NCBI GenBank assembly: GCA_030583785.1
Contig: CP129475.1
Location: 1,042,209-1,106,208 of the forward strand
Source: Candidatus Dojkabacteria bacterium
GTDB lineage: Bacteria; Patescibacteriota; Dojkabacteria; B142; OLB20
Direction of reading: 5' to 3'
DNA: 64,000 nt
Position numbers and translations under genes: made by a program. A model generated the notes under the pieces. It saw only the letters and a program-made list of their open reading frames with translations, was not told the DNA's origin and made no database searches. Shown here piece by piece: positions 1,548 through 51,165 of this stretch; position 1 is the first letter of the stretch; each line of letters begins with the position of its first letter.

Positions 1548-1567
1548 AGATAGAGGATAACAATTAA

Positions 1568-1593
1568 GGTCATGGCGCAATTGCGCCATGACC
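1568..1593. promoter_or_regulatory. Perfect 26-bp inverted repeat GGTCATGGCGCAATTGCGCCATGACC in the divergent tdh / M20 intergenic region. Candidate operator or RNA hairpin.
   Basis: Read directly from the sequence. It has an 11-bp stem with a 4-nt centre and is GC-rich in an AT-rich spacer. Confidence 0.4.
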
Positions 1594-3811: not shown

Positions 3812-4087
3812 ATGAATCATAAACACGATAAAAGCGCTAAAACACGAGCCATTCACAGGATTAAAATCGTTAAAGGTCATTTGACTAAAATCCAGAAAAT
3901 GCTGGATAACGATGAGTACTGTGTTGGTATTGTGCATCAATCTCGCGCTGTGCAAAGTGCGCTTAAAAAACTTGATAGCCTGATCATCGAAAACCATCTT
4001 AAGACTTGTGTAATCGATCAAATACAAAATGGAGAAGAGGATCGAGTTGTGGCTGAACTGTTAAAATTATTTGATTACAAAGATTAA
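3812..4087 (+). CDS. csoR: CsoR/RcnR-family metal-sensing transcriptional repressor (copper)
   Basis: RAIHRIKIVKGHLTKIQKMLDNDEYCVGIVHQSRAVQSALKKLDSLIIENHLKTCV matches the CsoR pattern (R.RRIeGQvrgi.rMie.d.YC.diL.Q..Av..AL......ll.H...C). Confidence 0.85.
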   Translation: MNHKHDKSAKTRAIHRIKIVKGHLTKIQKMLDNDEYCVGIVHQSRAVQSALKKLDSLIIENHLKTCVIDQIQNGEEDRVVAELLKLFDYKD

Positions 4088-4091
4088 TAAT

Positions 4092-5501: not shown

Positions 5502-5508
5502 ATGTTAG

Positions 5509-7895: not shown

Positions 7896-8669
7896 CTAAT
7901 TGGTTCCCTCTTTTTTTGACTTTGCCAATTCTTCCTTTAATTCTTTCATTTTGAGTTCTCGATGTACCATAGTTTTGGCAATCTCTGCTGATTCAGCCGA
8001 TACTCTTTCTAACTCCTGATTCTTTTGAAGTAGCTCTGAACTAGTATACTCAAGTTTCTTGATGTATTCTCCAAGTCGCTTATTTGCTGCAGAAATCTCA
8101 TCTTTTTGTTTTTCTAAAGATCTCTCGCTTGCCTTCCAAGCAGTTGCAAGAAGGTATATTAAAACTGCTAAGGATAAGTAACTGGCTAGATATGATAAGA
8201 AGGCTCGTATAGAGAATCCGGAAATCTCTGAAATATTAAGAGCGAAGAAATGTGTTGTAATAACAAACAAATATGTGAATACTGCTAATAGGGATAGGCG
8301 ATTTCTATTCATAAAGATTACTACTGCCGGAAATAGAAATGTCCAATAGACATCTTCGCTGAAGAGTCCTCCGGTAAAGTAGATTACAAACGATGAGTAG
8401 AAAAAAAGAATTATAAGTAGATATTTCTCTGGTCGTTTGTAATTATCTCTGATCATTCTTAGGCTGAGGATTAAGCTTATTACGGTGGATATCCCTATGA
8501 GAAGTGCTAGGAAGTAGTCTGAGAATAAGATTGAGATAACGACATAAACAACCTGTGATATTGCTCCTATGAGCATGAATATACCGAAATACTTGTTTTG
8601 CATTGACTTTATATTGCTTACCACAAATAGTCTAATAATCGTATAGAAATATTCTTGCATACAATTCAA
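7896..8669 (-). CDS. Polytopic membrane protein (~6 TM) with a C-terminal coiled-coil tail. Function unknown.
   Basis: A hydrophobic N-terminal 170 aa is followed by a heptad-rich K/E tail (EKQKDEISAANKRLGEYIKKLEYTSSELLQKNQELERV...). Confidence 0.5.
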   Translation of the reverse strand: MNCMQEYFYTIIRLFVVSNIKSMQNKYFGIFMLIGAISQVVYVVISILFSDYFLALLIGISTVISLILSLRMIRDNYKRPEKYLLIILFFYSSFVIYFTGGLFSEDVYWTFLFPAVVIFMNRNRLSLLAVFTYLFVITTHFFALNISEISGFSIRAFLSYLASYLSLAVLIYLLATAWKASERSLEKQKDEISAANKRLGEYIKKLEYTSSELLQKNQELERVSAESAEIAKTMVHRELKMKELKEELAKSKKEGTN

Positions 8670-28740: not shown

Positions 28741-29145
28741 ATGGCAGATACAAAATTAGAAAAATATACTTACGCAATTGGTAGAAGAAAAACAGCAACA
28801 GCTACTGTTAGACTCTTTCTTGGAAAAGGAGTTTCTACAGTAAATAATAAGCCAGTCAACGAGATGTTCCCATCAAAGATTGATCAGAAAAAAATTGCTT
28901 CTCCATTCAAGGCAATTGGCAAAGAAACAGATTTCTACTTCACTGCCGTTACTAACGGAGGCGGAACAACTGGTCAATCAGGAGCAGTTAGACATGCCCT
29001 ATCAAGAGCTCTCGCCGAACTTAATCCAGACTATCGTCTTGCGTTAAAACCTCTCGGATACCTAACAAGGGATCCTCGAATGGTTGAAAGAAAGAAAACC
29101 GGTCTGAGAAAAGCTCGCAAATCAGAGCAGTACTCCAAGCGTTAA
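28741..29145 (+). CDS. rpsI: 30S ribosomal protein S9
   Basis: S9 C-terminus GLRKARKSEQYSKR. Confidence 0.95.
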   Translation: MADTKLEKYTYAIGRRKTATATVRLFLGKGVSTVNNKPVNEMFPSKIDQKKIASPFKAIGKETDFYFTAVTNGGGTTGQSGAVRHALSRALAELNPDYRLALKPLGYLTRDPRMVERKKTGLRKARKSEQYSKR

Positions 29146-29160
29146 TCTACAGATCATATA

Positions 29161-29189
29161 TTCACTTAGCAATCTTCAATTGCTATAAT
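29161..29189 (+). promoter_or_regulatory. Candidate promoter (TTCACT - 17 nt - TATAAT) immediately downstream of rpsI, in front of the PEGA/secretion-like cluster
   Basis: Read from the sequence. Confidence 0.3.
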
Positions 29190-29208
29190 TTCACATACCC
29201 TATTTGGG

Positions 29209-29904
29209 GTGAAATTTTGCGTAAACATGCTTAAAAAACTGCTTGCCGTAATCATTTTAATAATTATTCTTGCGGCTCTTGCGTTTTGGTCTCCTTGGCA
29301 GAAATGGGATTTGAGTTTTTCAAGACTGCTCGGGATTGATGCCAGAGAAGAGTTTGCTGCACTCAAGGTTAAATCATTAGCCGGGGATCTTGATGTATAT
29401 CTGGACGGAGAGCTTGTGGGTCAAGTTTCAGCAGAAGAGGACTTTCTAGAAGTATTTCCCATTGACCCTGGTGAGCATACAGTAAAACTAGTAAGAAATT
29501 CTACAATCTCTTATCCAGAAGTTATTAAGAAGCTGAACTTTGAGCCTGCAGTGGATGTGATTATCGGTTACGAGATTGGCCCAAATGAAGCCTTCTCAGA
29601 GGGGCATATCTTATATGCCAGAAGAAGTTATACAGCTAACGAAAATCCACTTCTAGAGATATATTCTGTACCAGAAGCTGTTCGGGTTCTATTAAATGGC
29701 GAAGAGATCGGACAGACACCTCTAAGAAGCATTTCTCTACCTTTAGACACAAAACATAAGCTTAGATTCGAAAAAGATGGATACGATTCTTTAGAAATCG
29801 AGATATTGCCCGACAATCAATCAGATAGAGAAAAACTTAAAAATACAGTCTTAACATTAGAGGTAAACTTATTTGCCCAGCCTATACCAATTGTTGAACA
29901 ATAA
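29209..29904 (+). CDS. Membrane-anchored PEGA-domain protein. The start may be the ATG at 29227.
   Basis: An N-terminal TM helix followed by two PEGA-like beta modules (YSVPEAVRVLLNGEEIGQTPL; DVYLDGELVGQVS). Confidence 0.55.
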   Translation: MKFCVNMLKKLLAVIILIIILAALAFWSPWQKWDLSFSRLLGIDAREEFAALKVKSLAGDLDVYLDGELVGQVSAEEDFLEVFPIDPGEHTVKLVRNSTISYPEVIKKLNFEPAVDVIIGYEIGPNEAFSEGHILYARRSYTANENPLLEIYSVPEAVRVLLNGEEIGQTPLRSISLPLDTKHKLRFEKDGYDSLEIEILPDNQSDREKLKNTVLTLEVNLFAQPIPIVEQ

Positions 29905-32900
29905 TGTCGCAAAAACTAAACAATACAAGTAAATACCCAACCTCTCTGTTAGTTTCGGGAGGCGATGCCTTGGGGATAGAAATTGCCAAATCATTACTAG
30001 AACAGGGTGGATATGTAATTATAATTGACAATATTTCTCAGAGAGCTCAAGAGATTTATTCTCAGCTCGGGAGCTATGAATTATTGACACTTCTAGATTA
30101 TGATTCGATTGCTACTCTGGACGACGACCTGCGAAGGCTTGATTATGTTTTCTATTTTAAACATCAGTCGAGCGATCTGTTTGAGTCGTTATCATCCCAA
30201 GATTTTTTGCAGGCATCCAATTACCTTGATGCAGTTCTAGATCTAACAACAAAATTTGAGGCAAAGTTCTTGCTGACAACCTCGATCAAGGCTCATCAAT
30301 TTGCCATTGAATCAGGAGAGACAAAAAAAACAAATAAATACTCAGATATTGAAATACAAAAGTACAGCGAAGGATTGGTCGAGGAGTATCGAGATCAAGT
30401 TGGTATAGATGCCAGAATAGTTAGGCTCGGTGAACTACTGGGCAAGGGAATGGATATTGCAGCGAATACAAAGCTAGTAAAAATGATGTATCAAGCCATA
30501 AACGGAGAACATCTTACATTACCTGGCGATGGCCTTGAAAGTGATTACTATGTTCATTATCTTGATGCTGCCTACGGCATATTAAAGGCACAATTCTCTA
30601 TGAACACGAGAGCAAAAACATTCTCTTTGGCGAATGACGAAGAAGTCACCTTGCTGTCAATAGCCTATAAACTACTTGAACTAGAGCCTGATGCTAAAGA
30701 GATTATCTTTAACCAAAACGATAATAAACTTCCACCAATCAAGATTTATCATCCTGCCCCGAATCTTAATACCATCGGCTGGAAGCCGAGAGTTAGTCTT
30801 GAACGGGCTCTAGTTCAGTCTTTGGACTACATGCGAATAGAACAAGAAAAAGAGACAAAGGTTCCAGATGCCCCTTCTGGCGATAATCAACCAGAAGCTA
30901 GAATCGAAAAAAAAGGCTTCTTAGAACTAATTCGTGGTTTTTTTTTCGTTCAAACTAAGCAAAGCAAAAATGAGAGCGAAGAAGATCAATCAATAGACGG
31001 GGCTCTGCAACGACTTGTTCAGGAGAGAAAGATGCAAGAAAGAATGCGCAAAGGAAGTATTGTCCTTGCCAATTCCAAAATCCGTCAAAGACTAAAACCA
31101 CAAAAGCAACTTACTACCCTCGAAAGATTTGCAAAACAGTTGAATAAGTCATTTTCTTCACTAAAAAAGCATTTCTATTTTTTAAGAAATATTACTCTCG
31201 GCGATTTTGCACTTATCATTGGGGGTTTAATTGCCTTTTCAATTCTCTATTTTTTGATAGTTTCCCCGATTTTAAGTCTGGGTAGAAATATATATTTCAT
31301 CTCTACAAATTCAGACGGTCTTGTTAATGCCCTTCAGGCTTATGATATCGATTCCGCCACAGAGCGTGCCGAAAACATAAATACTAATCTTGCTGAGGCG
31401 CAACTCCGATTAGCAGACATAAACTTTCTTTTCGGCCTCTTGCAACAAAGGGACGAGTACCTTCAATACCAAACTCTACTTGCAGATGGGAAAGAGTATT
31501 CTGCTGGTTTAATCGATACCTTAAGAGCTCTTCAACCCTTTTCCCAACTAGTTAAAGAGTTTGAGCCAAATGTTGTCTATCGCATTAGTGAAGGAAATTT
31601 ACTCGCCGCAAGTCCTGCTCCTATCATGGCCACTTTAATTGAAGATATTAATAACAATTCTGCGGCAATTCGAATCGGGGTCGCCAGAATGGAGAAAAGT
31701 AAAGAACGATTAATTGCTGGTATCGAGAACTCACCAGATTTTCTTAAGCAGATTATTAAACCTTCGATTATTGATATTAATGGCTATTATCAAAACTTTT
31801 CTTCCTTAGCGACCTCCTATGAGTTTATGCCAAAGCTATTAGGCAGAAATTCTCAAAAAGCATATCTTCTTGTTGTCCAAGATAATGCAAGATATACAGC
31901 TGGAGGTGGTGAAATTGTCGGGTTTATATATTTCCAGGTGAAAGATGGATCTTTAGCGGGAATATCTGCGATTCCTATCTCCAGTAATCTAAATGCAGAT
32001 CTTCCCTTGTCCAGTAAGGCAATTTCCTCAATAAATCTTCTCTCGAACAAAGATGTTAATTCAGAAAATGCATTACTTAGCGATGTGGCACTTATTGGAA
32101 ACACTGATTTGCGATTACAGGCCTTAAAAGAAATATTTATGGCTAATGAAAACAAACCTGTCGATATCATTGCTTCTGTTAATCTTAATCTTCTTGAAGA
32201 GTTTTTAAGATACAGAGGTGCGGTTGAATATCAGCAGGTAAATTTTTCTGATGATAACTTACTGTCAGGTATAAACTTATTAATGGGTTCAACACAAACA
32301 AAGAGTAATAGGGATAATATCATTCTGAACTTGTATTCAAAAACAATTGCTCGAGAGTTTAATAATCTGAGTGACGACTTTCTAAATACAGTTCAGATTG
32401 TTGCTCAAGCAAGAGAATCTGGTGATTTGCACCTTTACTCAGAAGAGATTGATCTAAAAAATTATTTGATAGCTACATCAACTTCTCCTTCTCAGGCATC
32501 AGATAGAATTAGTTTCGGACTAAATTATGATCAAGAGAAAATCCTGATTAATAAATATCCGATTATTAATATATCTGTGATTGTTGATGTAAACAAAGAC
32601 TTAAGTACTAGTAAGCAAATAATAGTATCTGCAGCTGGCACAGAAGGCTTGCAGAATATTTATGTTTGTAATCCTAACGGATCGAAAAACTTCACTTATC
32701 CAGGGGTAGATCCCTTGCTTGTTACAAATACTTTCAGTTCCGACATCTTTTGTACTATCTTCCTAGAAGACGATGATATTCGCTATGAAATGTTCTTTGA
32801 TACTCTGACCTTTGAAAATAGTTCCTCAACAGGTTATAATTACAATCTGGAGTTAGTAAAGAATCCAGGGATAAGCGCAAACTACGACATAGAGTTTCGC

Positions 32901-33020
32901 TTTAATCCTGAACTAGAGGTAAACCCCCAAAGCGTAGACTATTTAGAGCAGGGTGGTTCATTCATTTACTCCGGCGTCCTTAAAGGCGATTTAAGATTTA
33001 GATTTGATATTAAACAATAA
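29904..33020 (+). CDS. 1038-aa bitopic protein of unknown function. It has a degenerate Rossmann/epimerase-like cytoplasmic domain, a single TM near aa 430-455, and a ~580-aa extracytoplasmic domain.
   Basis: N-terminal LLVSGGDALGIEIAKSLLEQGGYVIIID is a GxGxxG-like Rossmann motif. The central hydrophobic helix is FALIIGGLIAFSILYFLIVSPIL. The large C-terminal region has no recognisable motifs. Confidence 0.6.
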   Translation: MSQKLNNTSKYPTSLLVSGGDALGIEIAKSLLEQGGYVIIIDNISQRAQEIYSQLGSYELLTLLDYDSIATLDDDLRRLDYVFYFKHQSSDLFESLSSQDFLQASNYLDAVLDLTTKFEAKFLLTTSIKAHQFAIESGETKKTNKYSDIEIQKYSEGLVEEYRDQVGIDARIVRLGELLGKGMDIAANTKLVKMMYQAINGEHLTLPGDGLESDYYVHYLDAAYGILKAQFSMNTRAKTFSLANDEEVTLLSIAYKLLELEPDAKEIIFNQNDNKLPPIKIYHPAPNLNTIGWKPRVSLERALVQSLDYMRIEQEKETKVPDAPSGDNQPEARIEKKGFLELIRGFFFVQTKQSKNESEEDQSIDGALQRLVQERKMQERMRKGSIVLANSKIRQRLKPQKQLTTLERFAKQLNKSFSSLKKHFYFLRNITLGDFALIIGGLIAFSILYFLIVSPILSLGRNIYFISTNSDGLVNALQAYDIDSATERAENINTNLAEAQLRLADINFLFGLLQQRDEYLQYQTLLADGKEYSAGLIDTLRALQPFSQLVKEFEPNVVYRISEGNLLAASPAPIMATLIEDINNNSAAIRIGVARMEKSKERLIAGIENSPDFLKQIIKPSIIDINGYYQNFSSLATSYEFMPKLLGRNSQKAYLLVVQDNARYTAGGGEIVGFIYFQVKDGSLAGISAIPISSNLNADLPLSSKAISSINLLSNKDVNSENALLSDVALIGNTDLRLQALKEIFMANENKPVDIIASVNLNLLEEFLRYRGAVEYQQVNFSDDNLLSGINLLMGSTQTKSNRDNIILNLYSKTIAREFNNLSDDFLNTVQIVAQARESGDLHLYSEEIDLKNYLIATSTSPSQASDRISFGLNYDQEKILINKYPIINISVIVDVNKDLSTSKQIIVSAAGTEGLQNIYVCNPNGSKNFTYPGVDPLLVTNTFSSDIFCTIFLEDDDIRYEMFFDTLTFENSSSTGYNYNLELVKNPGISANYDIEFRFNPELEVNPQSVDYLEQGGSFIYSGVLKGDLRFRFDIKQ

Positions 33021-33027
33021 ATAAACG

Positions 33028-33492
33028 ATGCAACCAAAATTATTACTTACACAAGAAGGGTTTGATGAGCTAGAAAAAGAGCTAAACGAAAGGATTAGCG
33101 TGACACGCAACAAGATTGCAGATGATATCGATCATGCTAGACAGCAGGGAGATCTTTCTGAAAACGCTGCCTATAAGGCAGCTATGGAGGCTAAGGAATT
33201 CAACGAAAATCGTATTGCTAAAATCGAAGACATGCTAAAGAATGCAGAAATTTCTGTTGCTTCTAAAGGCAAAAAGGTCGATATCGGAAAAACTGTCACT
33301 CTAGTAATTAAGGGGGACAGCAAACCTATAGAATTTCAAATTGTCGGCCACAGCGAAGCTGATCCAGCTCAAAGAAAAATCTCGCCAGAGTCTCCAATTG
33401 GTTCTGCTCTTATGGGTAAAAAAGAAGGAGACAAAGTTTTAGTAGAACTTCCTGCTGGCTCTGTTGAATATCTCATAAAAAAGGTAAACTAG
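33028..33492 (+). CDS. greA: Transcription elongation factor GreA
   Basis: LTQEGFDELEKELNE... coiled-coil plus FKBP-like C-terminal domain. Confidence 0.9.
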   Translation: MQPKLLLTQEGFDELEKELNERISVTRNKIADDIDHARQQGDLSENAAYKAAMEAKEFNENRIAKIEDMLKNAEISVASKGKKVDIGKTVTLVIKGDSKPIEFQIVGHSEADPAQRKISPESPIGSALMGKKEGDKVLVELPAGSVEYLIKKVN

Positions 33493-33519
33493 GATTAGTA
33501 AATAGAGTAACCAATACAA

Positions 33520-34758
33520 ATGGAACGACATTCTGTCCCACAGAACATCATGGATGTTGAATTCAAGTTGTTCGGATCGTTCACTATCAAACAATTTGCT
33601 TATCTTGCAGCAGGCTTCATTGGAGCCTTGGTTGTATTCGTGTCGCCATTTCCTGACTTACTAAAGATGATACTGTTGCCTATGAGCATGATTCTAGGCA
33701 TATTTCTTGGAGTAATAAAAATTAATGGCCAACCATCAAGTGTGTTCTTGAGTAATTTCATAGCAGCTCTTTTCTCATCTCAAACAAGAATTTGGCAAAA
33801 GAGCTCAAAGACACCAGAAATGCTTCAAGAAGCTAGGGCTGCAATTAACCCAAAAGATGTTGAGGTTTTACAAGTTGCTACAAAAACATTAAATCGAAGC
33901 TCTAAACTGATGCCACTGCAGAGTCTAGTTATTGAAGAAGAGAACGAACTAGATAAAGAGGAATCAGATCGTCTTGAACAGATTGAAAAGCATTTCAATT
34001 TTGCCGTTGGAGATCTAGAAAAGGAGACAATGAGAGCTGAAATTGAAACAAAAAAAGTAAGTCCTCCAAAGTTGCCATCTCCTCCAGATACAGCAATAGA
34101 GCAGCCTCCGATTTTTCATATTGATCCCGAAGCCGATAATTTGGCAGGATCTATTGCACATAAAGAATTACAAGGTGAGCCAATTTTAAGAACAAATAAA
34201 TATGCAACCATCTATAAACAGATGCAGTCGCAAACAAATAGACCAATTGTTGAGGAAACTTCACAGCCTAAAGCTGAAGAAATAGTACAAGAACAGTTAC
34301 CAGAGCAGGTACAAGGGCAGGTACAAGAGCAGGTAAAGGAACAAGAAGTTGTAACCGACTCGGTGACTAATGCAGATGCTCAAGTTCAGGCAGAGCCCTC
34401 AGTATCTGTAGAAACCGAGAATAAGGTGGAAAATAAAGAGGCAATTGTGACACAAGTTCAGACAAATATTCCAAGTCCACCACTTATTCCTCAGCACAGA
34501 AAACCAAATATTGTTGCTGGAATTGTTGTTGATAAGAACGACAAGCCTATTGCTCATGCCACCATCGAGTTTAAAGATGAGAGAGAACAACTTCTAAGAA
34601 AGGTCACGACAACAGTAAATGGTACATTTGGATTAAGTACCCCTCTTCCTAACGGAACATACCGGGTTGATATTAATGCTGAAGGCTTTAAGTTTAATCG
34701 TTTTGAGCTTATACTTTCAGGAACGGCATTGCCTAATTATAAATTTAAGGCCAAATAA
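33520..34758 (+). CDS. PrgI/VirB3-like two-TM conjugation/T4SS protein fused to a long low-complexity (Q/E/V-repeat) region and a C-terminal carboxypeptidase-regulatory-like beta-sandwich domain
   Basis: N-terminal VPQNIMDVEFKLFGSFTIKQFAYLAAGFIGALVV...MILLPMSMILGIFLGV matches the PrgI/TcpE/VirB3-like hairpin-TM pattern. A QVQGQVQEQVKEQ repeat follows. The C-terminal domain is IVAGIVVDKNDKPIAHATIEFKDE...VNGTFGL...GTYRVDINAEGF. Confidence 0.5.
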   Translation: MERHSVPQNIMDVEFKLFGSFTIKQFAYLAAGFIGALVVFVSPFPDLLKMILLPMSMILGIFLGVIKINGQPSSVFLSNFIAALFSSQTRIWQKSSKTPEMLQEARAAINPKDVEVLQVATKTLNRSSKLMPLQSLVIEEENELDKEESDRLEQIEKHFNFAVGDLEKETMRAEIETKKVSPPKLPSPPDTAIEQPPIFHIDPEADNLAGSIAHKELQGEPILRTNKYATIYKQMQSQTNRPIVEETSQPKAEEIVQEQLPEQVQGQVQEQVKEQEVVTDSVTNADAQVQAEPSVSVETENKVENKEAIVTQVQTNIPSPPLIPQHRKPNIVAGIVVDKNDKPIAHATIEFKDEREQLLRKVTTTVNGTFGLSTPLPNGTYRVDINAEGFKFNRFELILSGTALPNYKFKAK

Positions 34759-34763
34759 GATAG

Positions 34764-35480
34764 ATGGGACTTTTCACACAATCAACAGTTAGCACACAGG
34801 CTCATCTACCTATCGAAGATGTTAGAGATGACCTAGTTGTATTAAAGAATGGGAATGTATCTTTAGTACTAGAAACAACTGCACTTAACTTTGAACTCCT
34901 TTCAGAAAGAGAACAAGATGCCAAGATCCTATCTTTTGCAGGGTTACTAAATTCTCTTGGTTTCCAAATGCAGATTGTAATTATGACCGAAAGAACAGAC
35001 ATGTCAATATACATTGACAGGCTTAGAGCTTATAGGGAGTCACAAATATCAAATTCGTTGCGAAAACAGATCGATATTTACATGAGGTTCATCAATAATC
35101 TAACTATTAATACAGAGGTTTTAGATAAAAGGTTTTTTGTGATAATTCCAGAAATTGTTGCAGAAGTCCAAAGAACTAGTATGATCAAACAGCTATTTGG
35201 CAAACCTGTCAAGATCACAAATATTAGAAGTATTCTTGATAGAGCCAAAGCTAGGGTCTATCCAAAAAGAGACCATTTGATCAAGCAATTCCAAAAAATG
35301 GGTATTTCAGCGCGGCAATTAAATAACGAAGAATTGATTCGTTTGTACTACTCAATCTACGATCCAGATAAGGCGGGAGTTTCAAAGTTAGAGCTCAATC
35401 CATCAGAGATAACAACAGGAATGGTTGGCGCCCTCAAGACAGAGATAGAAGATAAACAATTATCAGAAGTAAAAAAATAA
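34764..35480 (+). CDS. Hypothetical protein between the VirB3-like and VirB4-like genes. It may be related to the VirB4 N-terminal domain.
   Basis: Tightly packed with its neighbours (6-nt and 1-nt gaps). The motif LVVLKNGNVSLVLETTALNFELLSEREQDAKILSFAGLLNSLGF...QIVIM resembles the early-partition region of TraC/VirB4 proteins. No catalytic motifs are present. Confidence 0.4.
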   Translation: MGLFTQSTVSTQAHLPIEDVRDDLVVLKNGNVSLVLETTALNFELLSEREQDAKILSFAGLLNSLGFQMQIVIMTERTDMSIYIDRLRAYRESQISNSLRKQIDIYMRFINNLTINTEVLDKRFFVIIPEIVAEVQRTSMIKQLFGKPVKITNIRSILDRAKARVYPKRDHLIKQFQKMGISARQLNNEELIRLYYSIYDPDKAGVSKLELNPSEITTGMVGALKTEIEDKQLSEVKK

Positions 35481-35481
35481 G

Positions 35482-37440
35482 ATGGGATTAATTCCTTTTA
35501 TCGGAAAAAAGAAAATACAGAAACCTGAAGTCCAAAACGGAAATTTGGCTCAGTCGACTGCATCTCAAGCAAAAAATCATACAAACTCTGTAAGTGTGCA
35601 AATGCAAGGTCAGCCGATAGCTCAAGAAAATAAAGCTGTACAAATGTTCTCTCAGGGCGTGCTGGATGTAAAGGATATAATTGCACCACCGGCTATTGAA
35701 ATTGACTTTAACCATCTTCTTGTAGGAGGAACTTACTTTCGAACTTTCTTTGCTACCGGATTTCCTAGATGGGTAGGCGCTAATTGGTTAGCACCACTGA
35801 TCAATTTTGAGAAACCTTTAACAATTAGTACATTCTATTATCCTGTGGATTCTGCGTTAATAATGCAAAGGTTAAAAAGAAAGATTGCAGAAATGCAGGC
35901 GACGCTAAATCTTGATATTGAGGCCGGAAAAATTCCTGATCCAAGCGTTAAAGTTGCGCTCAGAGACGCAGAAGATTTGCAGGATCAAATAGCCAGTGGC
36001 AACGAAAAGTTCTTCCACTTCGGCTTGTATGTTACTGCGAGAGCAAAGAATCTTAAAGAGCTTGAAAGAATATCCAGAAATGTAGAGTCAACTCTATCTG
36101 CCATTGGTGTTATTGTGAAAATTGCCTCACTTCAACAAGAAGAAGGGTTCATTACTTCTATGCCGTTAGCAGAAGATCGAATTCATTTGACCAGAAATAT
36201 GGATACGACTTCTCTGGCAACAACATTTCCTTTCGTCTCTTCAGAGCTCAGCATGGATGACGGCATTATGTATGGCGTAAACAAGCACAATAAAAGCCTT
36301 ATTGTCTTTGATCGCTTTCAGATGCCGAATGCAAATATGGTAATCTTTGCTACATCCGGAGCAGGAAAATCATACTTTGTTAAACTCGAGGCGATGCGAA
36401 GCCTTATGCTTGGAACCGATGTCATAATTATTGACCCTGAAAAAGAATACGAAAAGATGACCACCACAATAGGTGGAGAATATATTTCCTTCAGCCAGGA
36501 TGGAGATCAGAAACTTAATCCGTTCGAGTTATCAGGAATGTTTGATAAAGATGAAGACGAACTTCGTTTCAAGATTCTTTTCCTTCAGGGTTTAATAAAG
36601 ATTATGGTTGGTGGAAGTCTTAGCCCGATTGAAACGGCAATCTTAGATAGAGCTTTAATCCTTACCTACAAAGAAAAAGGTATTTCCCCTGATCCGGCAA
36701 CTCAAAGAAGAGAACCACCACTGCTAGAGGATCTTTATAAGGTACTCAATGCGATGGCCGAACCGGAAGCACATAATCTTGCTCAGCGACTTGAAAGGTA
36801 CCTTAAAGGTAGCGCAGCAGGTATCTTTGATAGAAGGTCAAATGTAGAAATCAAAAATACTTTTACGGTATTTAGTATTCGAGATCTGACCGATGAAATG
36901 CGACCTATCGCAATGGCAATGATGCTTGATTATATCTGGACTAGAGTTAAAAAAGATCGTCGACAAAGAATATTGATAATTGACGAGGCATGGTGGATGA
37001 TGCAGTATCCTGATGCTGCAAGATTCGTATATTCTGTTGCCAAAAGAGCTAGAAAATATGCACTTGGGCTTACTACGATCAGTCAGGATGTTGAAGATTT
37101 TCTTGATTCAGATTTTGGAAAAGCAGTAGTAACTAACTCGTCTATTCAAATCCTTCTTAAACAAAGTCCTGCAGCCGTTGATCGAATTAAAGAGGTATTC
37201 TACCTTTCAGATGGAGAGAGAGATTACTTGTTAAGTGCAGGGGTTGGAGAGGGATTATTCTTTGCAGGAAACAATCATGTTGCAATGCAGGTAATTGCCA
37301 GTGAGAACGAACATAATCTTATCACTACAAATCCAAAGGAGTTGCTTAAGAAAGAAGCAGAAGAAAAAGCGCTGGCTGGGCAGGCAGAGAATGCTCAACC
37401 GGCAAGGGCAGACTTAGCTTTAAATAGTAGCGAGCAATAA
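35482..37440 (+). CDS. VirB4/PrgJ/TrsE-family type IV secretion ATPase (Gram-positive conjugation type)
   Basis: Walker A FATSGAGKSY, Walker B RILIIDEAWWMM, and an N-terminal APPAIEIDFNHLLVGGTYFRTFFATGFPRWVGANWL block typical of TrsE/PrgJ/VirB4. Confidence 0.8.
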   Translation: MGLIPFIGKKKIQKPEVQNGNLAQSTASQAKNHTNSVSVQMQGQPIAQENKAVQMFSQGVLDVKDIIAPPAIEIDFNHLLVGGTYFRTFFATGFPRWVGANWLAPLINFEKPLTISTFYYPVDSALIMQRLKRKIAEMQATLNLDIEAGKIPDPSVKVALRDAEDLQDQIASGNEKFFHFGLYVTARAKNLKELERISRNVESTLSAIGVIVKIASLQQEEGFITSMPLAEDRIHLTRNMDTTSLATTFPFVSSELSMDDGIMYGVNKHNKSLIVFDRFQMPNANMVIFATSGAGKSYFVKLEAMRSLMLGTDVIIIDPEKEYEKMTTTIGGEYISFSQDGDQKLNPFELSGMFDKDEDELRFKILFLQGLIKIMVGGSLSPIETAILDRALILTYKEKGISPDPATQRREPPLLEDLYKVLNAMAEPEAHNLAQRLERYLKGSAAGIFDRRSNVEIKNTFTVFSIRDLTDEMRPIAMAMMLDYIWTRVKKDRRQRILIIDEAWWMMQYPDAARFVYSVAKRARKYALGLTTISQDVEDFLDSDFGKAVVTNSSIQILLKQSPAAVDRIKEVFYLSDGERDYLLSAGVGEGLFFAGNNHVAMQVIASENEHNLITTNPKELLKKEAEEKALAGQAENAQPARADLALNSSEQ

Positions 37441-38009
37441 TGGACCAATTATTTCAGCAAGAATTCACTTTTACTCTAACCGGAACCGCTCTTTTAGGAG
37501 TTGTTCTATTTTTTATCGTTGCATCGCTTGCATTGGTAATACTGATTTTCTCTTTGATTCGAAAAATTCAGTTATTGCAAAAACCAAAGTACGGTTTTCT
37601 TGGAAAACCTATCTTCTCTGTGCTTGCACTTGTTGGAATTGCTACCACAATGATCTATTTTAGCTACTCCTTCTCAAATCAACCGGATTTTCAAATCAGT
37701 GCGAATCGAACTGTTAATGCAAGTATAGAATACAGGCAGGTTGGAATTAGTGGCACAAAGAAACTTGTGGAATTTCAAGCAGTTCCAGTCGTAGATAATC
37801 GCGAGTATGGATTAAGCTCTGATCGCTTCGAGATTCTTTGGAGGGTAAATAATGTCGATGGAACAGAAAGAATTGAGTATGAACGAACTAAGAATAACCC
37901 CAGTGCCGTATATATTGAACTTGATCCAGGTTCGTATACAGTAAGTGCTATAATCGTTTTTGAGGGTAAATCATATCAGTTTGTTGAACCGGTTATAATA
38001 AATCCCTAA
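37440..38009 (+). CDS. Small two-TM protein with a beta-rich ectodomain, translationally coupled to the VirB4-like gene
   Basis: Its ATG overlaps the VirB4-like stop. N-terminal hydrophobic helices are followed by a soluble C-terminal domain. Confidence 0.5.
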   Translation: MDQLFQQEFTFTLTGTALLGVVLFFIVASLALVILIFSLIRKIQLLQKPKYGFLGKPIFSVLALVGIATTMIYFSYSFSNQPDFQISANRTVNASIEYRQVGISGTKKLVEFQAVPVVDNREYGLSSDRFEILWRVNNVDGTERIEYERTKNNPSAVYIELDPGSYTVSAIIVFEGKSYQFVEPVIINP

Positions 38010-38026
38010 TTAGCCCAGAAGTGTTA

Positions 38027-38396
38027 TAATTATTGCACCAATTCAGGCAGCTGCGCATTCATTTATGAATGTGAGGAAAGTCCGGACTCCTTCGTTGGCA
38101 ACAGCGAAATGGGCACTGTGGAGACACAGGTGGGCGTGAGCTTACGGAATAAAGGGCAACAGAAAAGATACCGCCTCTTGTTTGAGGTAAGGTTGAAAAG
38201 GTGAGGTAAGAGCTCACCGGTCGACTTGGCAACAAGTCGATGCATTGTAACCCCTGCTCGGAGCAACCTGGCAAATTCAGGGCATCCTTAGGGAACCTTA
38301 GGTAATTACAGAAGCTTAGTAATTTCCGCAGGTAGAGAAATAGCTGTCTAGTTCAAGCAAAGCTTGAATCAAACAGAATCCGGCTTATGAATTGGT
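38027..38396 (+). ncRNA. rnpB: RNase P RNA (bacterial type A)
   Basis: P4 strands GAGGAAAGTCCGGACTCC and ACAGAATCCGGCTTAT are present. GGTAAGGTTGAAAAGGTGAGGTAAGAGCTCACC matches the conserved P10-P12 region. A P1 helix forms by ACCAATTCA/TGAATTGGT. The ORF-track ORFs at 38059-38274 (-) lie inside this RNA and are artifacts. Confidence 0.85.
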
Positions 38397-38403
38397 TAAA
38401 GAA

Positions 38404-38435
38404 AGAACCCGCTTTTAAAGCGGGTTCTTCGTTTT
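38404..38435. terminator. Bidirectional terminator hairpin (AGAACCCGC-loop-GCGGGTTCT + T-run) between rnpB and the convergent yugP-like gene
   Basis: A 9-bp stem with TTCGTTTT downstream and an A-run upstream. Confidence 0.6.
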
Positions 38436-45203: not shown

Positions 45204-46040
45204 TTAGATTCTCTTTCCGATTGTAATTAATCGATGAGAACTGCTTCCCAGAGGTGTGCAGGTGATAATTTTTACCAGATCGTCGTCTGCTGCGTTAAAG
45301 ATAGCCATGTCGTCACCCTCGCGAACTGCTTGAGCCACAATTGAGTATTCATAGGATTGGCCATTGTCTGATTCTAGTCTAATGACATCGCCGACTTTGG
45401 CTCTATCAATGAACCAGCATGATCTTGGATCGTTAGGTCCAAAGTATCTACGATGGCAGAGAAGTATCTTTTCCCCTTTGGCGTAAGATGTCGGGTATAA
45501 CCACATTCCCTGATCGAGTGCAGCATCTCCATCTGAACCTTGTATTACAGGTGAGTTAATATTAATAGAGTCGATTACAATGCGAGAGATTCCTGTTGCT
45601 AAAGGATGAGGAGTAGATTTTACAGTTTCGGCATATGCTTTGATTTCTGTGGTTACAAGATTATCACGAATTCCGGATACTACAACCTCTTGTTGCTTAG
45701 GTAACTCAACCTGATTATTGGTGCTGATTCCTGCAACATTTTGGTCATATCGAGATAGTGACTCAGCTCTCGCAACAACAGAAGTTGCATTGAATGTTTT
45801 ATACGGAATAAAGAATCCGTAATCGAACTGAGCGTTAGTTTCGATGGCTAAAGGTGCATACTGCTGAACTTGTTGATTTTCGTTGTTGCTGGAATATGTT
45901 GGTCTTACGCCAATAATTGATGGTAAATCTGCTCCACCAAGCATGCCTAGGACAATGGAGAGTATGCCAAAGAAGGCAACCAACAATGCCCCAATCATTA
46001 TGAAGATGAAGAATATTCCAGATTTATTCGAATTTTCCAT
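45204..46040 (-). CDS. Sortase-family transpeptidase (membrane-anchored)
   Basis: An N-terminal TM, a His in LLCHRRYFG, the catalytic-Cys motif LVKIITCTP (TLxTC-like), and a downstream Arg. Confidence 0.6.
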   Translation of the reverse strand: MENSNKSGIFFIFIMIGALLVAFFGILSIVLGMLGGADLPSIIGVRPTYSSNNENQQVQQYAPLAIETNAQFDYGFFIPYKTFNATSVVARAESLSRYDQNVAGISTNNQVELPKQQEVVVSGIRDNLVTTEIKAYAETVKSTPHPLATGISRIVIDSININSPVIQGSDGDAALDQGMWLYPTSYAKGEKILLCHRRYFGPNDPRSCWFIDRAKVGDVIRLESDNGQSYEYSIVAQAVREGDDMAIFNAADDDLVKIITCTPLGSSSHRLITIGKRI

Positions 46041-46175: not shown

Positions 46176-47660
46176 ATGAAAACAGTCATATTTGAGTCAC
46201 ATAAAGACAAACAACTTCGTAAAGGGCTTATCGCTTATTCGGTTGTCCTTTTGGCAGGCTTGTTTGTCGCACTATCAGCAGTTCTATTTGCTGGAAGTTC
46301 AGAGGCCTTAGTTGTAGACAGGGGAATCTCTTGTAGCGGTGCCGCTAGAAGTGGAGCTGAATGCAATGTTTTAGGCTATCCCCAAAATGTAAACCACATG
46401 TTTGGTTGCTATAACAAAGGTGCAGGTTTTAAGTGTTACGAAGTTCCTGCAAACTCTAACGAAGCTTTGCCAGGCTGCTTCCTTGACACAGATGGTCAAT
46501 GGAAGAACTGCGGTTGTGATATTGCAGCTTGCGAAAATGCCTGCAGAAATAACAATGCCAACAATCCAGGTAGCCATACCCAAGGATGGACATGTAATGG
46601 CTGCGGACAAAACTTCTTATGTGGATGTACTGTATCTCCAACAATTGTTCCAACTACAGGCACACCAACTCCACCACCTCAGGGATGTCCAAGCACACAA
46701 GCTAGATTTTTGGTCGGAAATAGCGGTCTTGTAAAAAGTGGTCAGTTCCAGTTAACTTCTGTCCCACCTTTTGAATATAGTGTTCTTATTAATGGAGATG
46801 TTAACCAGAAGTTTCAGGGAACTGTAGTATTAACTACACCAAATACATCCAGAACACATAATAATGGTGATACCAGACAAGTACCAACACCTCATGTTGC
46901 CGGGAACTACAGATTAGTTGCCAGTCTAAACGGCGAGGTTTGCGATACTGCAGAAGTTAGACTCATTAACGCAGAGATTACTAATCTGCAATGCTGGGAA
47001 ACAGGATGTAACGATTCTGATAAACAATGTGCTCCTGGATCGGGACTTAGCTGTGTAAATAATCGCTGTGTAAATCCACAGTATCCAAACAATCCCGATT
47101 GTAAACCAGATGTCACTCTCAAGTGCTGGGAAACAGGATGTTCAACTCAAGGTAATGTTTGTGAGAACGGCCTGAGCTGTTTAAACAATCGCTGTGTAAA
47201 CCCGCAGTATCCTGAAAATCCAACATGTGAGGCTGTTCCAGGCATTACATTAGATAAAATGACACCAAATGGTCCCGGACCATACAATGTCGGTCAAATT
47301 GTTCCGTTTAGAATTACAATTACTAATACAGGACAAACAACCTATTCAGTAATTAGTTTTAGAGACAGCTGGAATACAAGTAGGCTCGATTTCATTCGAA
47401 TAATAAATAACGCCAACGGCAACGATGTAACTTCTAACTTCACAATAAACCGAACTATGGGAGTTGTGAGTAGTAATGACATCACCACATTTCTTGGAGA
47501 TCTTGGACCAGGACAGTCTTACAATCTGAGATTCGAGTTTAGAGCATTGGCAGCTACAAATCGAACCTGTAATGATGTTTCGATAGTGCCAAACGGAGGA
47601 AATCAAATGACTGACGATGCTTGTGTATCGATAAATCAACCTCCACCAACAGATATGTAA
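46176..47660 (+). CDS. Signal-anchored Cys-rich secreted/surface protein with two tandem 44-aa CWETGC...NNRCVNPQYP modules and a C-terminal DUF11/CARDB-like beta domain. No LPXTG motif.
   Basis: An N-terminal TM (LIAYSVVLLAGLFVALSAVLFAG), about 40 Cys, tandem repeats, and a C-terminal ITITNTGQTTYSV...GPGQSYNLRFEF segment. Confidence 0.6.
   Translation: MKTVIFESHKDKQLRKGLIAYSVVLLAGLFVALSAVLFAGSSEALVVDRGISCSGAARSGAECNVLGYPQNVNHMFGCYNKGAGFKCYEVPANSNEALPGCFLDTDGQWKNCGCDIAACENACRNNNANNPGSHTQGWTCNGCGQNFLCGCTVSPTIVPTTGTPTPPPQGCPSTQARFLVGNSGLVKSGQFQLTSVPPFEYSVLINGDVNQKFQGTVVLTTPNTSRTHNNGDTRQVPTPHVAGNYRLVASLNGEVCDTAEVRLINAEITNLQCWETGCNDSDKQCAPGSGLSCVNNRCVNPQYPNNPDCKPDVTLKCWETGCSTQGNVCENGLSCLNNRCVNPQYPENPTCEAVPGITLDKMTPNGPGPYNVGQIVPFRITITNTGQTTYSVISFRDSWNTSRLDFIRIINNANGNDVTSNFTINRTMGVVSSNDITTFLGDLGPGQSYNLRFEFRALAATNRTCNDVSIVPNGGNQMTDDACVSINQPPPTDM
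46986..47249 (+). repeat. Intragenic tandem duplication (2 x ~132 nt) encoding the Cys-rich CWETGC modules
   Basis: Read from the sequence: ...TGCTGGGAAACAGGATGT...AATCGCTGTGTAAATCCACAGTATCC... occurs twice in succession. Confidence 0.6.
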
Positions 47661-48324: not shown

Positions 48325-48906
48325 TTAGCCGTTCTTAGGTTCAACCAGACCGTATCCACCGTTTTCGCGCTTGTAAAGCATTGAATACTTGCCTGATTCA
48401 ATATTCTTAAATAGAAAGCTATTGTATCCTAGAAGCTCCATTCGTTCAATGGCCTCTGCTGGGTAGATCGGAGATTCGTCTTCGTATTGTTTGCGCTTAA
48501 TTTGTGGAACATAATCTAAATACGTATCTGGTTCGAGAGGGGCTGAATGCTCATCAAGAGTTTCTTGTATTTCTGTTGCCTTCCAAGGAGTTTCTTTTGA
48601 CCAGCGCTTGAATTGGTCGTTATATCTTTTTAGTTTGCGTTTAAGTATGTAGTCAATGTTATCAGTAATGCTTTCAATGTCTGAACCCTTACTCGAAGCC
48701 TTGATATAAGCATGAGGCATGTTTACCAGTAGTTCGATTTTTATTCTGGAATCTGCATTACTATGAGAGCTATGGTGTTCTACAACAACAGAAATTGAGG
48801 TAGCTTTGTCTAGGAGCTTTTTATGCTTGCCAATTTTTTTAATGATATGCTTTTGCTGGGCAGAAGAAAGGGAAATATTGCGAGTAGAGAAGGTTACTTC
48901 AGTCAT
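48325..48906 (-). CDS. hpf: Ribosome hibernation-promoting factor (long HPF)
   Basis: An N-terminal RaiA/HPF fold (TFSTRNISLSSAQQKHIIKKIGKHKK...) plus the C-terminal dimerisation domain. Confidence 0.85.
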   Translation of the reverse strand: MTEVTFSTRNISLSSAQQKHIIKKIGKHKKLLDKATSISVVVEHHSSHSNADSRIKIELLVNMPHAYIKASSKGSDIESITDNIDYILKRKLKRYNDQFKRWSKETPWKATEIQETLDEHSAPLEPDTYLDYVPQIKRKQYEDESPIYPAEAIERMELLGYNSFLFKNIESGKYSMLYKRENGGYGLVEPKNG

Positions 48907-48922: not shown

Positions 48923-49738
48923 TTAAACTACTCCATACATTAAAACGATAAAGATTAAAAATACTACAAAATATTCTCCGATAATTGCCTTGCTCAGCGA
49001 ACTTACTTGCTGATGGTGGAATACAGCTACAACGAAATAGAATAGTAATGTGGATAACAAGGCAACTGCAAAGTTATTAAATCTAAATGACTGAAGTACT
49101 AATAGAAATGCAATTAATAATAAAGCACCAACGACAAGTGTTTGCAGGCTTCTATTGTTAATCTGCTGTTTTCTAATTAATAACAGCATTGAAAGAACTG
49201 TGTAGGCGATCAAGATCGCTGCTAGAGTTACCCAGCCACTGCTACCCAAAAATCCGAATGTTTGCAGTGCCGAATCAGAAGAGACGAACATCATGATTAT
49301 GACAATGATGTCGTAAATTGCGTGTGTACCTTGCTCAAGTTTGAATTTGTCTTCGTAGTAGGCCCTTACATTGGTAAATAATATCGAAAAGATAATGAAT
49401 ATTATTGCCAGAATTATTAAGTGGGTGGATTTCTGGTGATTGAAAAAGACGAATAGAACAAAAGAGAAGTATGCAAAGCTAGGCAGAATAAAATGATGGA
49501 TTAAATGGATTAGTTTATCTTTCTCGTCAACTTGTGGTAATTGAAATTGATCGAGTAGTCTTCTGGCGTAGTACTTAGTACTATAAAGCTCGAATAATAG
49601 AATTAGATATAGAAATACACTACCAACAAAATAAAATCTATCTGGAAGGTTTTCTAGCAAGGAAATTAAAAACCAAAAACCAGAAGTGATTACTAAAGCA
49701 TAAACTAGGGGGCGTTTTTTCCAATTTATAATATTCAT
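48923..49738 (-). CDS. Polytopic membrane protein (about 7-8 TM), function unknown
   Basis: Hydrophobicity pattern only. Confidence 0.5.
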   Translation of the reverse strand: MNIINWKKRPLVYALVITSGFWFLISLLENLPDRFYFVGSVFLYLILLFELYSTKYYARRLLDQFQLPQVDEKDKLIHLIHHFILPSFAYFSFVLFVFFNHQKSTHLIILAIIFIIFSILFTNVRAYYEDKFKLEQGTHAIYDIIVIIMMFVSSDSALQTFGFLGSSGWVTLAAILIAYTVLSMLLLIRKQQINNRSLQTLVVGALLLIAFLLVLQSFRFNNFAVALLSTLLFYFVVAVFHHQQVSSLSKAIIGEYFVVFLIFIVLMYGVV

Positions 49739-51165
49739 TATGACCCTAATCCAGTAAGAATATTTCCACTAATACTTCCAATTAAAACTACAATCAAAAG
49801 AACGGCTAGTATTGAAAAATGCAGATGCGAGCTGTTCCTTTTGGGGACTCCACTCATACCGGTTTTGTGCAGAACATAAAAATCAATGCCGAATAGTGAC
49901 ATAAGAAAGACAATAAACATCATATTTATTTGCACTTTTGCATCTTGACTCGTGATATTTGCGGCTAATGATTCCAGCACACCTTCGGAAAATGTAGTGG
50001 GTTTTGGCGATATTGTTTCTATTGATAAGACCTGTGCCATTAGTTGTCCTGTCGGTAGTTCTATGCTGGAACTGTTTCCGGCAAGATCAATTGCGGTCAA
50101 CTTTATGTTGCTAACCTGTCCAAGCAGGCTTTTTGAGGCTTCCCCTTCCCAGTTGTTGAGCGATCCTCGAAAAGTAAGTCCGGGAATGTTCGACTCGATC
50201 ACTGAAGCATCTGAATCTGTCTTTAGATTGATTATTACAGCATCATCTTCGTTGTAGCTAAGAGAAGCGACCCTTATGCTTTCTTTAATAATTTCAGGAG
50301 CGACCGTATCGACAGTAACTTGTACTTCGTTAGAAAAAGCTTGCAAGGTGTTGTTTTGGTAGGCTAATGCCTTAAATATGCTTGCTCCGTCTGGATAGGG
50401 CTCTGAAGGTCTAAAGGTAAATGATTCTCCTTGTGCTTCAACTCTCCCTTGTAGTTCGTTGTTGCGTTCAATTGCAACTTCTGAGTTAGGAATTGTCTTT
50501 CCGGAAATAGGAAAAGAATTGTCGTTTGTTACATATCCATTTTCAGGATTGTCGATTGTGATTTTGTTGCTACCCTGTAGAGTGTTGCCGTCTGATCCAG
50601 GCAGGTTTGATCCACTAAAGCTTCGTGAACCAAAATGGACAACTACTATTGTGTTATTGCGAACTCCTTGATAATTACCATAGGCAAAACCAATTCCAAT
50701 CTCTGTGAACTCGCCTTTAAGAACATTTTCACGATGGGTAGGACTGTTCATCCAGGCATTCATAACTGCACCGTTTTCTCTAAAGCCTTCGGCAAGGTTC
50801 TCTCCGGCAAAAACATAGGTGTATCCTGCGCTGTCAAAGAAATCCCAAGGTGATTTGCCTTCTGGACAGAAATGTGACCAGCAATCGGCTTGAAGCATCG
50901 CATTGGCCTTGTTTGTGGCTGAAACTATTAGGGAAGTATTGACACTTAAAGGTTTTAATCCAAATCTTTGTCTTTCTTCGTTATGCAATTGATATAGAGC
51001 CGATGCATCGACTGCAGCAGATACCGGGCTGACGATAGACCCGCTGAAAACAACATTAATTAGGATAAGCGCTACAAGGTAAAGCGACAAAGTAGCACTT
51101 CTGATTAGATACGGATGATAATTGTTATGTTCGTTTGGAATAACGAGAGAAATGAGCTTATTCAT
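49738..51165 (-). CDS. CAP/SCP/PR-1 domain protein with an N-terminal signal anchor and C-terminal TM helices
   Basis: CAP-domain motifs (HNEERQRFGLKPL...NAWMNSPTHRENVL...EIGIGF...VVHFG), then a beta-rich region and a hydrophobic C-terminus. Confidence 0.7.
   Translation of the reverse strand: MNKLISLVIPNEHNNYHPYLIRSATLSLYLVALILINVVFSGSIVSPVSAAVDASALYQLHNEERQRFGLKPLSVNTSLIVSATNKANAMLQADCWSHFCPEGKSPWDFFDSAGYTYVFAGENLAEGFRENGAVMNAWMNSPTHRENVLKGEFTEIGIGFAYGNYQGVRNNTIVVVHFGSRSFSGSNLPGSDGNTLQGSNKITIDNPENGYVTNDNSFPISGKTIPNSEVAIERNNELQGRVEAQGESFTFRPSEPYPDGASIFKALAYQNNTLQAFSNEVQVTVDTVAPEIIKESIRVASLSYNEDDAVIINLKTDSDASVIESNIPGLTFRGSLNNWEGEASKSLLGQVSNIKLTAIDLAGNSSSIELPTGQLMAQVLSIETISPKPTTFSEGVLESLAANITSQDAKVQINMMFIVFLMSLFGIDFYVLHKTGMSGVPKRNSSHLHFSILAVLLIVVLIGSISGNILTGLGS

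Follow-up and report, generated by a model that had tools for sequence, protein, structure and literature searches.

Type IV secretion systems (T4SSs) of Patescibacteria were described between 2023 and 2025. A survey of 3,035 genomes placed almost every VirB4 in a single clade within the MPF_FATA class of monoderms; it met TrsD, PrgI/VirB3, VirB6 and VirB2-like proteins widely and relaxases hardly at all, in loci that are chromosomal and often near replication and translation genes (PMC12102498). Its dataset includes Dojkabacteria assemblies, with VirB4 scored 'Yes', and the accessible part of its supplement holds no PEGA, DUF4012 or greA entries. In Southlakia epibionticum the T4SS genes are essential for epibiotic growth by transposon sequencing (PMC10633639; reviewed in PMC12857230). 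Here we describe a locus of this kind in a patescibacterial genome of the Dojkabacteria (candidate division WS6), whose nearest relative is WS6 OLB20. The window, which in what follows means the whole stretch of DNA that was analysed, is 64 kb of CP129475.1, and our statements on gene content are confined to it. The locus is very probably the chromosomal, vertically inherited core of a Patescibacteria-type T4SS. An earlier note on this DNA overestimated its novelty.

With the Patescibacteria-clade T4SSs (PMC12102498; Southlakia SEML1_0006-0019, PMC10633639) the locus shares the gene order PrgI/VirB3-TrsD-VirB4, a VirB4 of MPF_FATA type, a chromosomal position near translation-related genes, the lack of a relaxase or coupling protein nearby, and residence in a patescibacterium of reduced genome. 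It differs from them in a 300-amino-acid (aa) extension of PrgI that ends in a beta-sandwich, in an FN3-like protein with two transmembrane (TM) segments after virB4, met here in Dojkabacteria-type genomes only, and in the co-orientation of the core with genes for a PEGA protein, a short-chain dehydrogenase/reductase (SDR)-like/DUF4012 protein and GreA. VirB6, a VirB2-like pilin array and peptidase/lysozyme genes, which lie near virB4 in Southlakia and many other classes, are all absent from this locus. Its features are the following.

29161-29189, + strand: promoter-like site TTCACT-17-TGcTATAAT in the spacer between rpsI and the PEGA gene, matching 10 of 12 consensus positions, with an extended -10
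29209-29904, + strand: bitopic PEGA-domain membrane protein (PF08308)
29904-33020, + strand: 1038-aa SDR-like / TM / DUF4012 protein (Pfam and an AlphaFold2 (AF2) model)
33028-33492, + strand: greA, transcript cleavage factor (TIGR01462)
33520-34758, + strand: PrgI/VirB3-like protein, 412 aa (PF12666 and PF13620)
34764-35480, + strand: TrsD-like protein, 238 aa (NCBIfam TrsD and VirB4_plasma)
35482-37440, + strand: VirB4-family ATPase of the CD1110 / MPF_FATA type, 652 aa (NF045971)
37440-38009, + strand: 189-aa two-TM membrane protein with an FN3/Ig-like domain (AF2 model)
38038-38399, + strand: rnpB, the RNase P RNA (Rfam RF00010, 166 bits), the downstream boundary and outside the system
38403-38429, + strand: intrinsic terminator after rnpB, a 12-bp stem (6 G-C pairs) with a T-run behind it

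Seven + strand open reading frames (ORFs) are thus packed between rpsI (28741-29145) and rnpB, with successive gaps of -1, 7, 27, 5, 1 and -1 nucleotides (nt). G+C content is flat at 0.36-0.39 across the block, the same as in the remaining window. A terminator scan of the rpsI-rnpB region found none that was convincing before rnpB; the one at 38403-38429, with 12 pairs, is the sole convincing terminator from rpsI onward to there.

For comparison, the best 80 of 438 GTDB relatives of VirB4 were kept, and 86 loci and a 30-kb slice of the window were clustered. The ATPase itself scores 398.6 bits with the NCBIfam model NF045971 ('conju_CD1110', cutoff 325), and its translation contains an intact Walker A motif (FATSGAGKSY) and Walker B motif (ILIIDEAWWMM). 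Its closest solved relative is the C-terminal domain of a VirB4 from the Firmicute Thermoanaerobacter (4AG5, E 1.8e-46). The best matches in a plasmid database are all from monoderms (Firmicutes and Actinobacteria, 28-37% identity) and are annotated as CD1110-family VirB4, and a TraD-type coupling model reaches E 0.0025 only.

The PrgI protein matches PF12666 with 34.6 bits (gathering score 27), its two-TM hairpin occupying residues 6-90. At 412 aa it is three times the usual VirB3 size: after the hairpin comes a long acidic, Q-rich linker, and the C-terminus is a CarboxypepD_reg-like beta-sandwich at residues 332-391 (PF13620, 41.8 bits, gathering score 32.3). This sandwich is kept in 18 of the 20 long PrgI proteins, which come from Dojkabacteria-type loci and from two WWE3-type loci (L027 and L029); the remaining 54 PrgI proteins, all from other classes, have 126-167 aa. 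Because both termini of VirB3 are cytoplasmic (PMC12857230) and the flanks of the hairpin are its lysine/arginine-rich sides, the extension is predicted to be cytoplasmic.

The 238-aa protein matches the TrsD model NF041427 (E 2.6e-8) and covers positions 103-282 of the 894-position VirB4_plasma model (E 1.5e-10), of which the next gene covers positions 292-893. Since they cover consecutive stretches of one VirB4 model, the two proteins together correspond to a canonical VirB4 whose N-terminal domain and motor are encoded apart. A TrsD-like gene lies directly upstream of virB4 in 83 of the 86 loci, and the protein upstream of a Pontibacillus virB4 has 27% identity to TrsD (E 2e-24).

Most of what the earlier note had read from the letters holds. 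It had proposed a same-strand block packed at 0-30 nt (the gaps are -1 to 27 nt) followed by rnpB, a PEGA-domain membrane protein, a 1038-aa protein with a Rossmann-like domain, a TM segment and an ectodomain, greA inside the cluster, a VirB3/PrgI-like two-TM protein, a VirB4-type ATPase with Walker motifs, and a translationally coupled small membrane protein, and each is borne out by the profile matches, translations and models reported here. The 238-aa protein, for which it had no identity, resembles TrsD, a counterpart of the N-terminal domain of VirB4. The note's own refuting test, that the ATPase might fall to HerA/FtsK and the PrgI homology fail, comes out for a T4SS.

Many metagenome contigs carry exactly this VirB4 sequence, and on them the genes stand in the same order. 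Among the best 80 of the 438 relatives, the closest are WS6 OLB20 and other Dojkabacteria, and the farther ones (VirB4 identity 46-59%) are WWE3, Falkowbacteria, Berkelbacteria and other Patescibacteria; almost all of the 80 are Patescibacteria by label or gene order, many of the labels being generic or otherwise automatic. PrgI, TrsD and VirB4 genes are adjacent in ~80 loci from many classes. In Dojkabacteria the full order from the PEGA gene to the 189-aa gene was found by tblastn and ORF clustering in ~20 species-level genomes, at VirB4 identities of 64-88%. Gaps within the block are mostly -29 to +51 nt in these loci; L024, L025, L018 and L007, a fragmented locus, have larger ones. In six of the seven other Dojkabacteria loci tested, the 189-aa gene is succeeded by rnpB. 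The block is intact where its rpsI neighbour is lost (L010 and L026) and where there are upstream insertions (L014, L021 and L024), which marks the seven genes as a unit.

Between genomes, VirB4 proteins are 64-88% identical; for the same pairs the figures are 45-79% for RpoA (37% in the outlier locus L018) and 35-67% for ribosomal proteins L17, L13 and S9. Compared with OLB20, the values are ~87-88% for VirB4 and 81% for TrsD, and 79% for RpoA, 65% for L17, 67% for L13 and 67% for S9; TrsD is likewise above these four in the closer genomes. That VirB4 is more conserved than RpoA, L17, L13 and S9 indicates strong purifying selection and argues against a decaying mobile element. PrgI, TrsD and VirB4 are encoded together and are under strong constraint.

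These comparisons include the synteny check suggested in the earlier note, and they show that the PEGA, 1038-aa, PrgI and VirB4 genes co-occur in ~20 Dojkabacteria genomes. Its view that the cluster is not a recent mobile element gains from the flat G+C content, the synteny between ribosomal genes and rnpB in those genomes and the constraint on VirB4. Its guess at a reduced-genome, possibly host-associated bacterium agrees with the best 80 of the 438 relatives, which are Patescibacteria-type metagenome-assembled genomes with WS6 OLB20 nearest.

The block appears to have a promoter of its own. In 10 of 12 Dojkabacteria loci a TATAAT is visible by eye ~25-70 nt 5' of the PEGA gene, six of these having the form TGnTATAAT, and the spacers between rpsI and the PEGA gene range from 64 to 1566 nt. 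Conservation of TATAAT despite so variable a spacer supports the promoter at 29161-29189 that the earlier note had proposed, and separates the unit from the ribosomal operon. We infer that this site would act as promoter of the seven-gene block. The best promoter-like match of the region is elsewhere, TTGAAA-17-TATAAT (11 of 12 positions) at 32812-32840 (+), inside the 3' end of the 1038-aa gene and ~190 nt upstream of greA; it is a candidate second start for greA and the T4SS core. The rnpB gene has its own extended -10 (TGTTATAAT) at 38023-38031, a few bases upstream, with the 12-bp-stem terminator behind it.

The putative mechanism can be stated as follows. PrgI is a VirB3-like hairpin whose two helices lie in the cytoplasmic membrane, TrsD corresponds to the N-terminal domain of a full-length VirB4 as a protein of its own, and the 652-aa VirB4 is the motor. 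If solved T4SSs are a guide, oligomers of this ATPase would dock on VirB3 at the membrane, and their use of ATP would assemble or power an envelope-spanning channel or pilus. Judging from other Patescibacteria, the machine most likely serves an epibiotic or parasitic interaction with a host bacterium, by import of host macromolecules or export of proteins. Its core is the distal half of the seven-gene unit with its putative own promoter.

The other parts of a T4SS were searched for in the window. Pfam scans of its ORFs, those of the ribosomal-protein and translation-factor operons excepted, gave no coupling protein, relaxase, VirB6 or cell-wall hydrolase, and no SLT, CHAP, amidase or M23 domain was found in the scanned ORFs or in the block. 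Profiles of the families that neighbour T4SS genes in other Patescibacteria, including a polytopic family (F6), matched nothing among window ORFs of at least 50 aa, and neither a polytopic protein nor a small two-TM pilin array lies beside the core. These results agree with the earlier note, which had seen no VirD4, relaxase, VirB6 or hydrolase. Two polytopic proteins of the window were considered as VirB6 and rejected: a 9-TM 271-aa protein (48923-49738, -) has no informative Pfam match at E 10, and its family shows no profile similarity to F6; a 5-TM 257-aa protein (7896-8669, -) likewise has no informative Pfam match at E 10. The F6 profile misses both.

In other classes (L035, L041, L056 and others, ~6 kb on each side of virB4) two layouts surround the core. 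In the first, a polytopic protein of ~900 aa with 6-9 TM segments and a 400-500-aa protein are encoded upstream, and downstream come an SLT+amidase protein, a TM+PEGA+beta-propeller protein and an M23 protein; the PEGA and propeller protein goes unnamed in the main text of the 2025 survey (PMC12102498). In the second, a 205-aa bitopic protein and a RadA/Sms-like ATPase are encoded downstream of virB4.

Some points weigh against reading the locus as a Patescibacteria-type T4SS core. Nothing like VirB6, VirB1, VirB8, VirB2 or a type IV coupling protein (T4CP) was found in the 64-kb window, so a complete channel is not reconstructable from the visible genes. The TrsD match of 33.9 bits is below the curated NCBIfam cutoff of 200. 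A 25-sequence TrsD profile had no match in the PDB, the N-terminal domain of TrwK included, so the link from TrsD to the VirB4 N-terminal domain rests on NCBIfam models and the literature. Placement of this VirB4 in the Patescibacteria clade is putative, with identity as its proxy (46-88% for the best 80 of the 438 relatives, 28-37% for the best matches outside Patescibacteria). In published patescibacterial systems the T4CP or further components are often encoded at other sites of the genome. This may hold for parts of the present system too, and the label of a minimal machine goes beyond the 64 kb inspected.

The same gene families are used for conjugation in monoderms. The conjugative MPF_FATA systems (pGO1 TrsC/TrsD/TrsE, pCF10 PrgI/PrgJ and CTn2 CD1110) share with this locus a CD1110 VirB4 and a PrgI-family VirB3, and in pGO1 TrsD is also a separate protein. 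Unlike them, this locus is without T4CP, relaxase, VirB6 (PrgH), VirB1 (PrgK/TrsG) and a VirB8-like protein (PrgL), lies off mobile elements and is conserved in the manner of housekeeping genes. With no relaxase or coupling protein beside the core, it is not a conjugation module; the earlier note had likewise called it T4SS-like and no standard conjugative module, which matches the published T4SSs of Patescibacteria (PMC12102498, PMC10633639, PMC12857230).

Outside Patescibacteria, the closest VirB4 (37% identity, 87% of the query covered) is encoded on an 898-kb replicon of Pontibacillus sp. ALD_SL1 (NZ_CP062975.1, 351-361 kb; L087). The layout there is similar, with a pilin-like gene, a polytopic 780-aa protein, a small protein, a TrsD-like protein, VirB4 and an M23 hydrolase. 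The flanking pilin-like, 780-aa, small and 1051-aa DD-metalloendopeptidase proteins of Pontibacillus have no counterpart in the window. The replicon is typed non-mobilizable in PLSDB, a further likeness to the locus here, and its T4SS-like locus adjoins flagellar genes.

As to function, one proposal is a nucleic-acid import machine resembling archaeal Ced or Helicobacter ComB, which would feed a parasite that lacks nucleotide synthesis. We regard this as possible but less likely than not. It would suit a window in which no relaxase or T4CP was found, and the authors of the 2025 survey favour import of DNA or other macromolecules (PMC12102498). According to a 2026 preprint, a cultivated patescibacterium takes up host RNA, with T4SS pili suggested at the cell interface (10.64898/2026.06.21.733656). 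Ced also pairs a VirB4-like ATPase with the lack of a relaxase and could be a functional analogue, and our VirB4 has weak matches to CedB (E 6e-14) and CedD (E 3e-7). However, the CedB score of 51.5 bits, against a cutoff of 700, does not make it a Ced member, and the block has no CedA-type partner and no ComEC-like gene. Protein export is equally possible according to the Southlakia authors (PMC10633639), and the sequence gives no sign of the direction of transport.

The preferred reading of a Patescibacteria-type core leaves room for the other genes of the block, for which the 189-aa protein is the best case. Its gene start overlaps the virB4 stop by 1 nt. In the AF2 model (mean predicted confidence, pLDDT, 87) helices at residues 15-46 and 56-78 are followed by a 7-strand sandwich at 92-187; across the family an invariant GFLGK loop joins the two TM helices, and the FN3/Ig-like domain is predicted to be extracellular. 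Homologs follow virB4 in 17 further Dojkabacteria-type loci with distinct sequences. The family comprises 218 clusters among 1.84 billion protein representatives, with lengths of 127-199 aa among the 150 members listed, and was met here only with Dojkabacteria-type loci or genomes. It is no VirB8/PrgL analogue, since its model shows two TM helices and an FN3/Ig-like sandwich rather than an NTF2-fold, and hhalign does not relate it to the small proteins that other classes encode after virB4 (F4 family, 19%). We consider it likely that this protein takes part in the machine, probably as a lineage-specific accessory subunit.

The PEGA gene is the first of the conserved block in every Dojkabacteria case. 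Its ORF opens at GTG 29209; gene callers take ATG 29227, which gives 225 aa. The protein has one N-terminal TM segment and a PEGA domain at residues 149-202 (PF08308, E 1e-10). The 1038-aa protein has, in order, a cytoplasmic SDR/epimerase-fold domain, a disordered linker, one TM segment (~residue 429), a helical stalk, DUF4012 and C-terminal beta-sandwiches (AF2 model, mean pLDDT 85). By Foldseek, residues ~1-320 (29904-30900) resemble UDP-xylose synthase and UDP-glucose epimerases, with E 5e-16 and target-based TM-scores of 0.74-0.83. Y146xxxE150 stands in place of the catalytic YxxxK, the Glu being shared by 49 of 52 homologs, and of the glycine motif G19x4G24 is left; with both motifs degraded, the domain is probably no enzyme but a conserved pseudo-enzyme. 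A canonical epimerase is encoded separately at 606-1589 (-). DUF4012 was found in all 13 ectodomains tested. Against PDB sequences the ectodomain has no relative, the Foldseek matches being the SDR matches to the N-terminal domain, and a lone weak match to LytR_cpsA_psr (E 0.073 in one of 13 members) is not evidence for that family. Among 207 homologs of ~1040 aa, every informatively named one is from Dojkabacteria.

Between these genes and the core lies greA (TIGR01462, 162.8 bits, cutoff 139; GDLSENA coiled-coil tip in the translation). It adjoins the PrgI gene in all Dojkabacteria loci and in none of the loci of other classes. greA is a housekeeping passenger embedded in the operon.

Every gene except greA might be part of one lineage-specific machine, with the PEGA protein, the DUF4012 giant and the 189-aa protein in place of VirB6, VirB8 and VirB1, and the PrgI beta-sandwich as a cytoplasmic substrate receptor. 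We find this improbable as a whole. The contiguous block from the PEGA gene to the 189-aa gene, with its own TATAAT and variable flanks on both sides, would fit such a machine, but compact genomes often pack unrelated genes together and greA sits in the middle of the operon. In other classes, 17 loci encode a TM+PEGA(+beta-propeller) family after virB4, at a distance of 1-4 genes, and hhalign relates it to the Dojkabacteria PEGA family with 88% probability (E 3e-6); against this, comparing sequences of one family with the profile of the other gives no significant match (E 0.03 to 0.5), and the PEGA beta-sandwich is common on cell surfaces. The window lacks the polytopic, SLT/amidase and M23 neighbours of other classes, and their roles would be left to fill, yet VirB6 could be encoded elsewhere in the genome. 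The loss of YxxxK from the SDR-like domain and the predicted cytoplasmic place of the PrgI extension (PMC12857230) are in keeping with structural or receptor roles in this proposal. On the other hand, DUF4012 is a general monoderm envelope family, enriched in Patescibacteria and tied to capsule and exopolysaccharide loci, such as that of Bifidobacterium, rather than to T4SSs (PMC6744442, PMC5412050), and none of the PEGA, 1038-aa and 189-aa proteins has homology to known T4SS subunits. For the PEGA protein and the SDR-like/DUF4012 giant, both proteins of the envelope, a role in the machine is possible, at rather less than even chances.

The strongest form of this proposal is more doubtful still: that the Dojkabacteria T4SS is structurally distinct, with a VirB3-TrsD-VirB4 motor joined to PEGA, SDR-like/DUF4012 and FN3-like parts, and with a VirB3-tethered beta-sandwich that recruits substrates. 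If true, envelope parts of the lineage would stand in for VirB6, VirB8 and VirB1, and the beta-sandwich for the coupling protein.

A decayed remnant of an integrated conjugative element is very improbable and largely refuted. Only three T4SS genes are recognisable, and the closest non-patescibacterial relatives of the VirB4 are on monoderm plasmids and elements, but position and order are kept in the ~20 species-level genomes, VirB4 is more conserved than its ribosomal and RpoA neighbours, its ATPase motifs are intact, the G+C content is native, and no integrase, relaxase or repeats were seen in the window. That the ATPase is of HerA/FtsK type and the PrgI match spurious is refuted: the Pfam match to DUF87, the HerA central domain (E 8.6e-9), is one common to VirB4 proteins, the NCBIfam HerA equivalog gives 11.9 bits (E 0.059, cutoff 970) where the CD1110 VirB4 model gives 398.6, the match to 4AG5 has E 1.8e-46, and PrgI is above its Pfam gathering score.

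Some other features of the window may be listed. A 475-aa protein (49738-51165, -) combines CAP/SCP and Big_13 domains with three TM segments; its gene is coupled by a 1-nt overlap to that of the nine-TM 271-aa protein (48923-49738, -), which has no family match, and a ribosome hibernation factor (48325-48906, -) comes after the latter. The 475-aa/nine-TM group is 2-12 kb from virB4 in four other Dojkabacteria loci, L017, L021, L024 and L025, the hibernation factor being detected only in L024 and L025, where the group stands directly after the 189-aa gene. A sortase gene (45204-46040, -) and a divergent gene for a 494-aa cysteine-rich protein (46176-47660, +) adjoin; the latter protein has an N-terminal TM segment, a weak DUF11-like C-terminal domain and no terminal LPXTG motif. 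At 4071-7818 (+) a P-type heavy-metal ATPase is encoded after a DsbD_2/HMA/cupredoxin-like membrane protein; the two have the look of a pair for copper handling, in a genome that is minimal otherwise.

The T4SS is among the few machines kept by nearly all Patescibacteria, and it is essential when the sole genetically tractable species grows on its host. The locus described here is no new kind of system; it is a clean Dojkabacteria example, in which the motor genes are more constrained than the neighbouring ribosomal proteins and the usual channel, pilin and hydrolase genes are not adjacent. Candidates for adaptation specific to this class are the fusion of a beta-sandwich to PrgI, the 189-aa protein whose gene is coupled to virB4, and the constant company of PEGA and DUF4012 envelope proteins in one operon.

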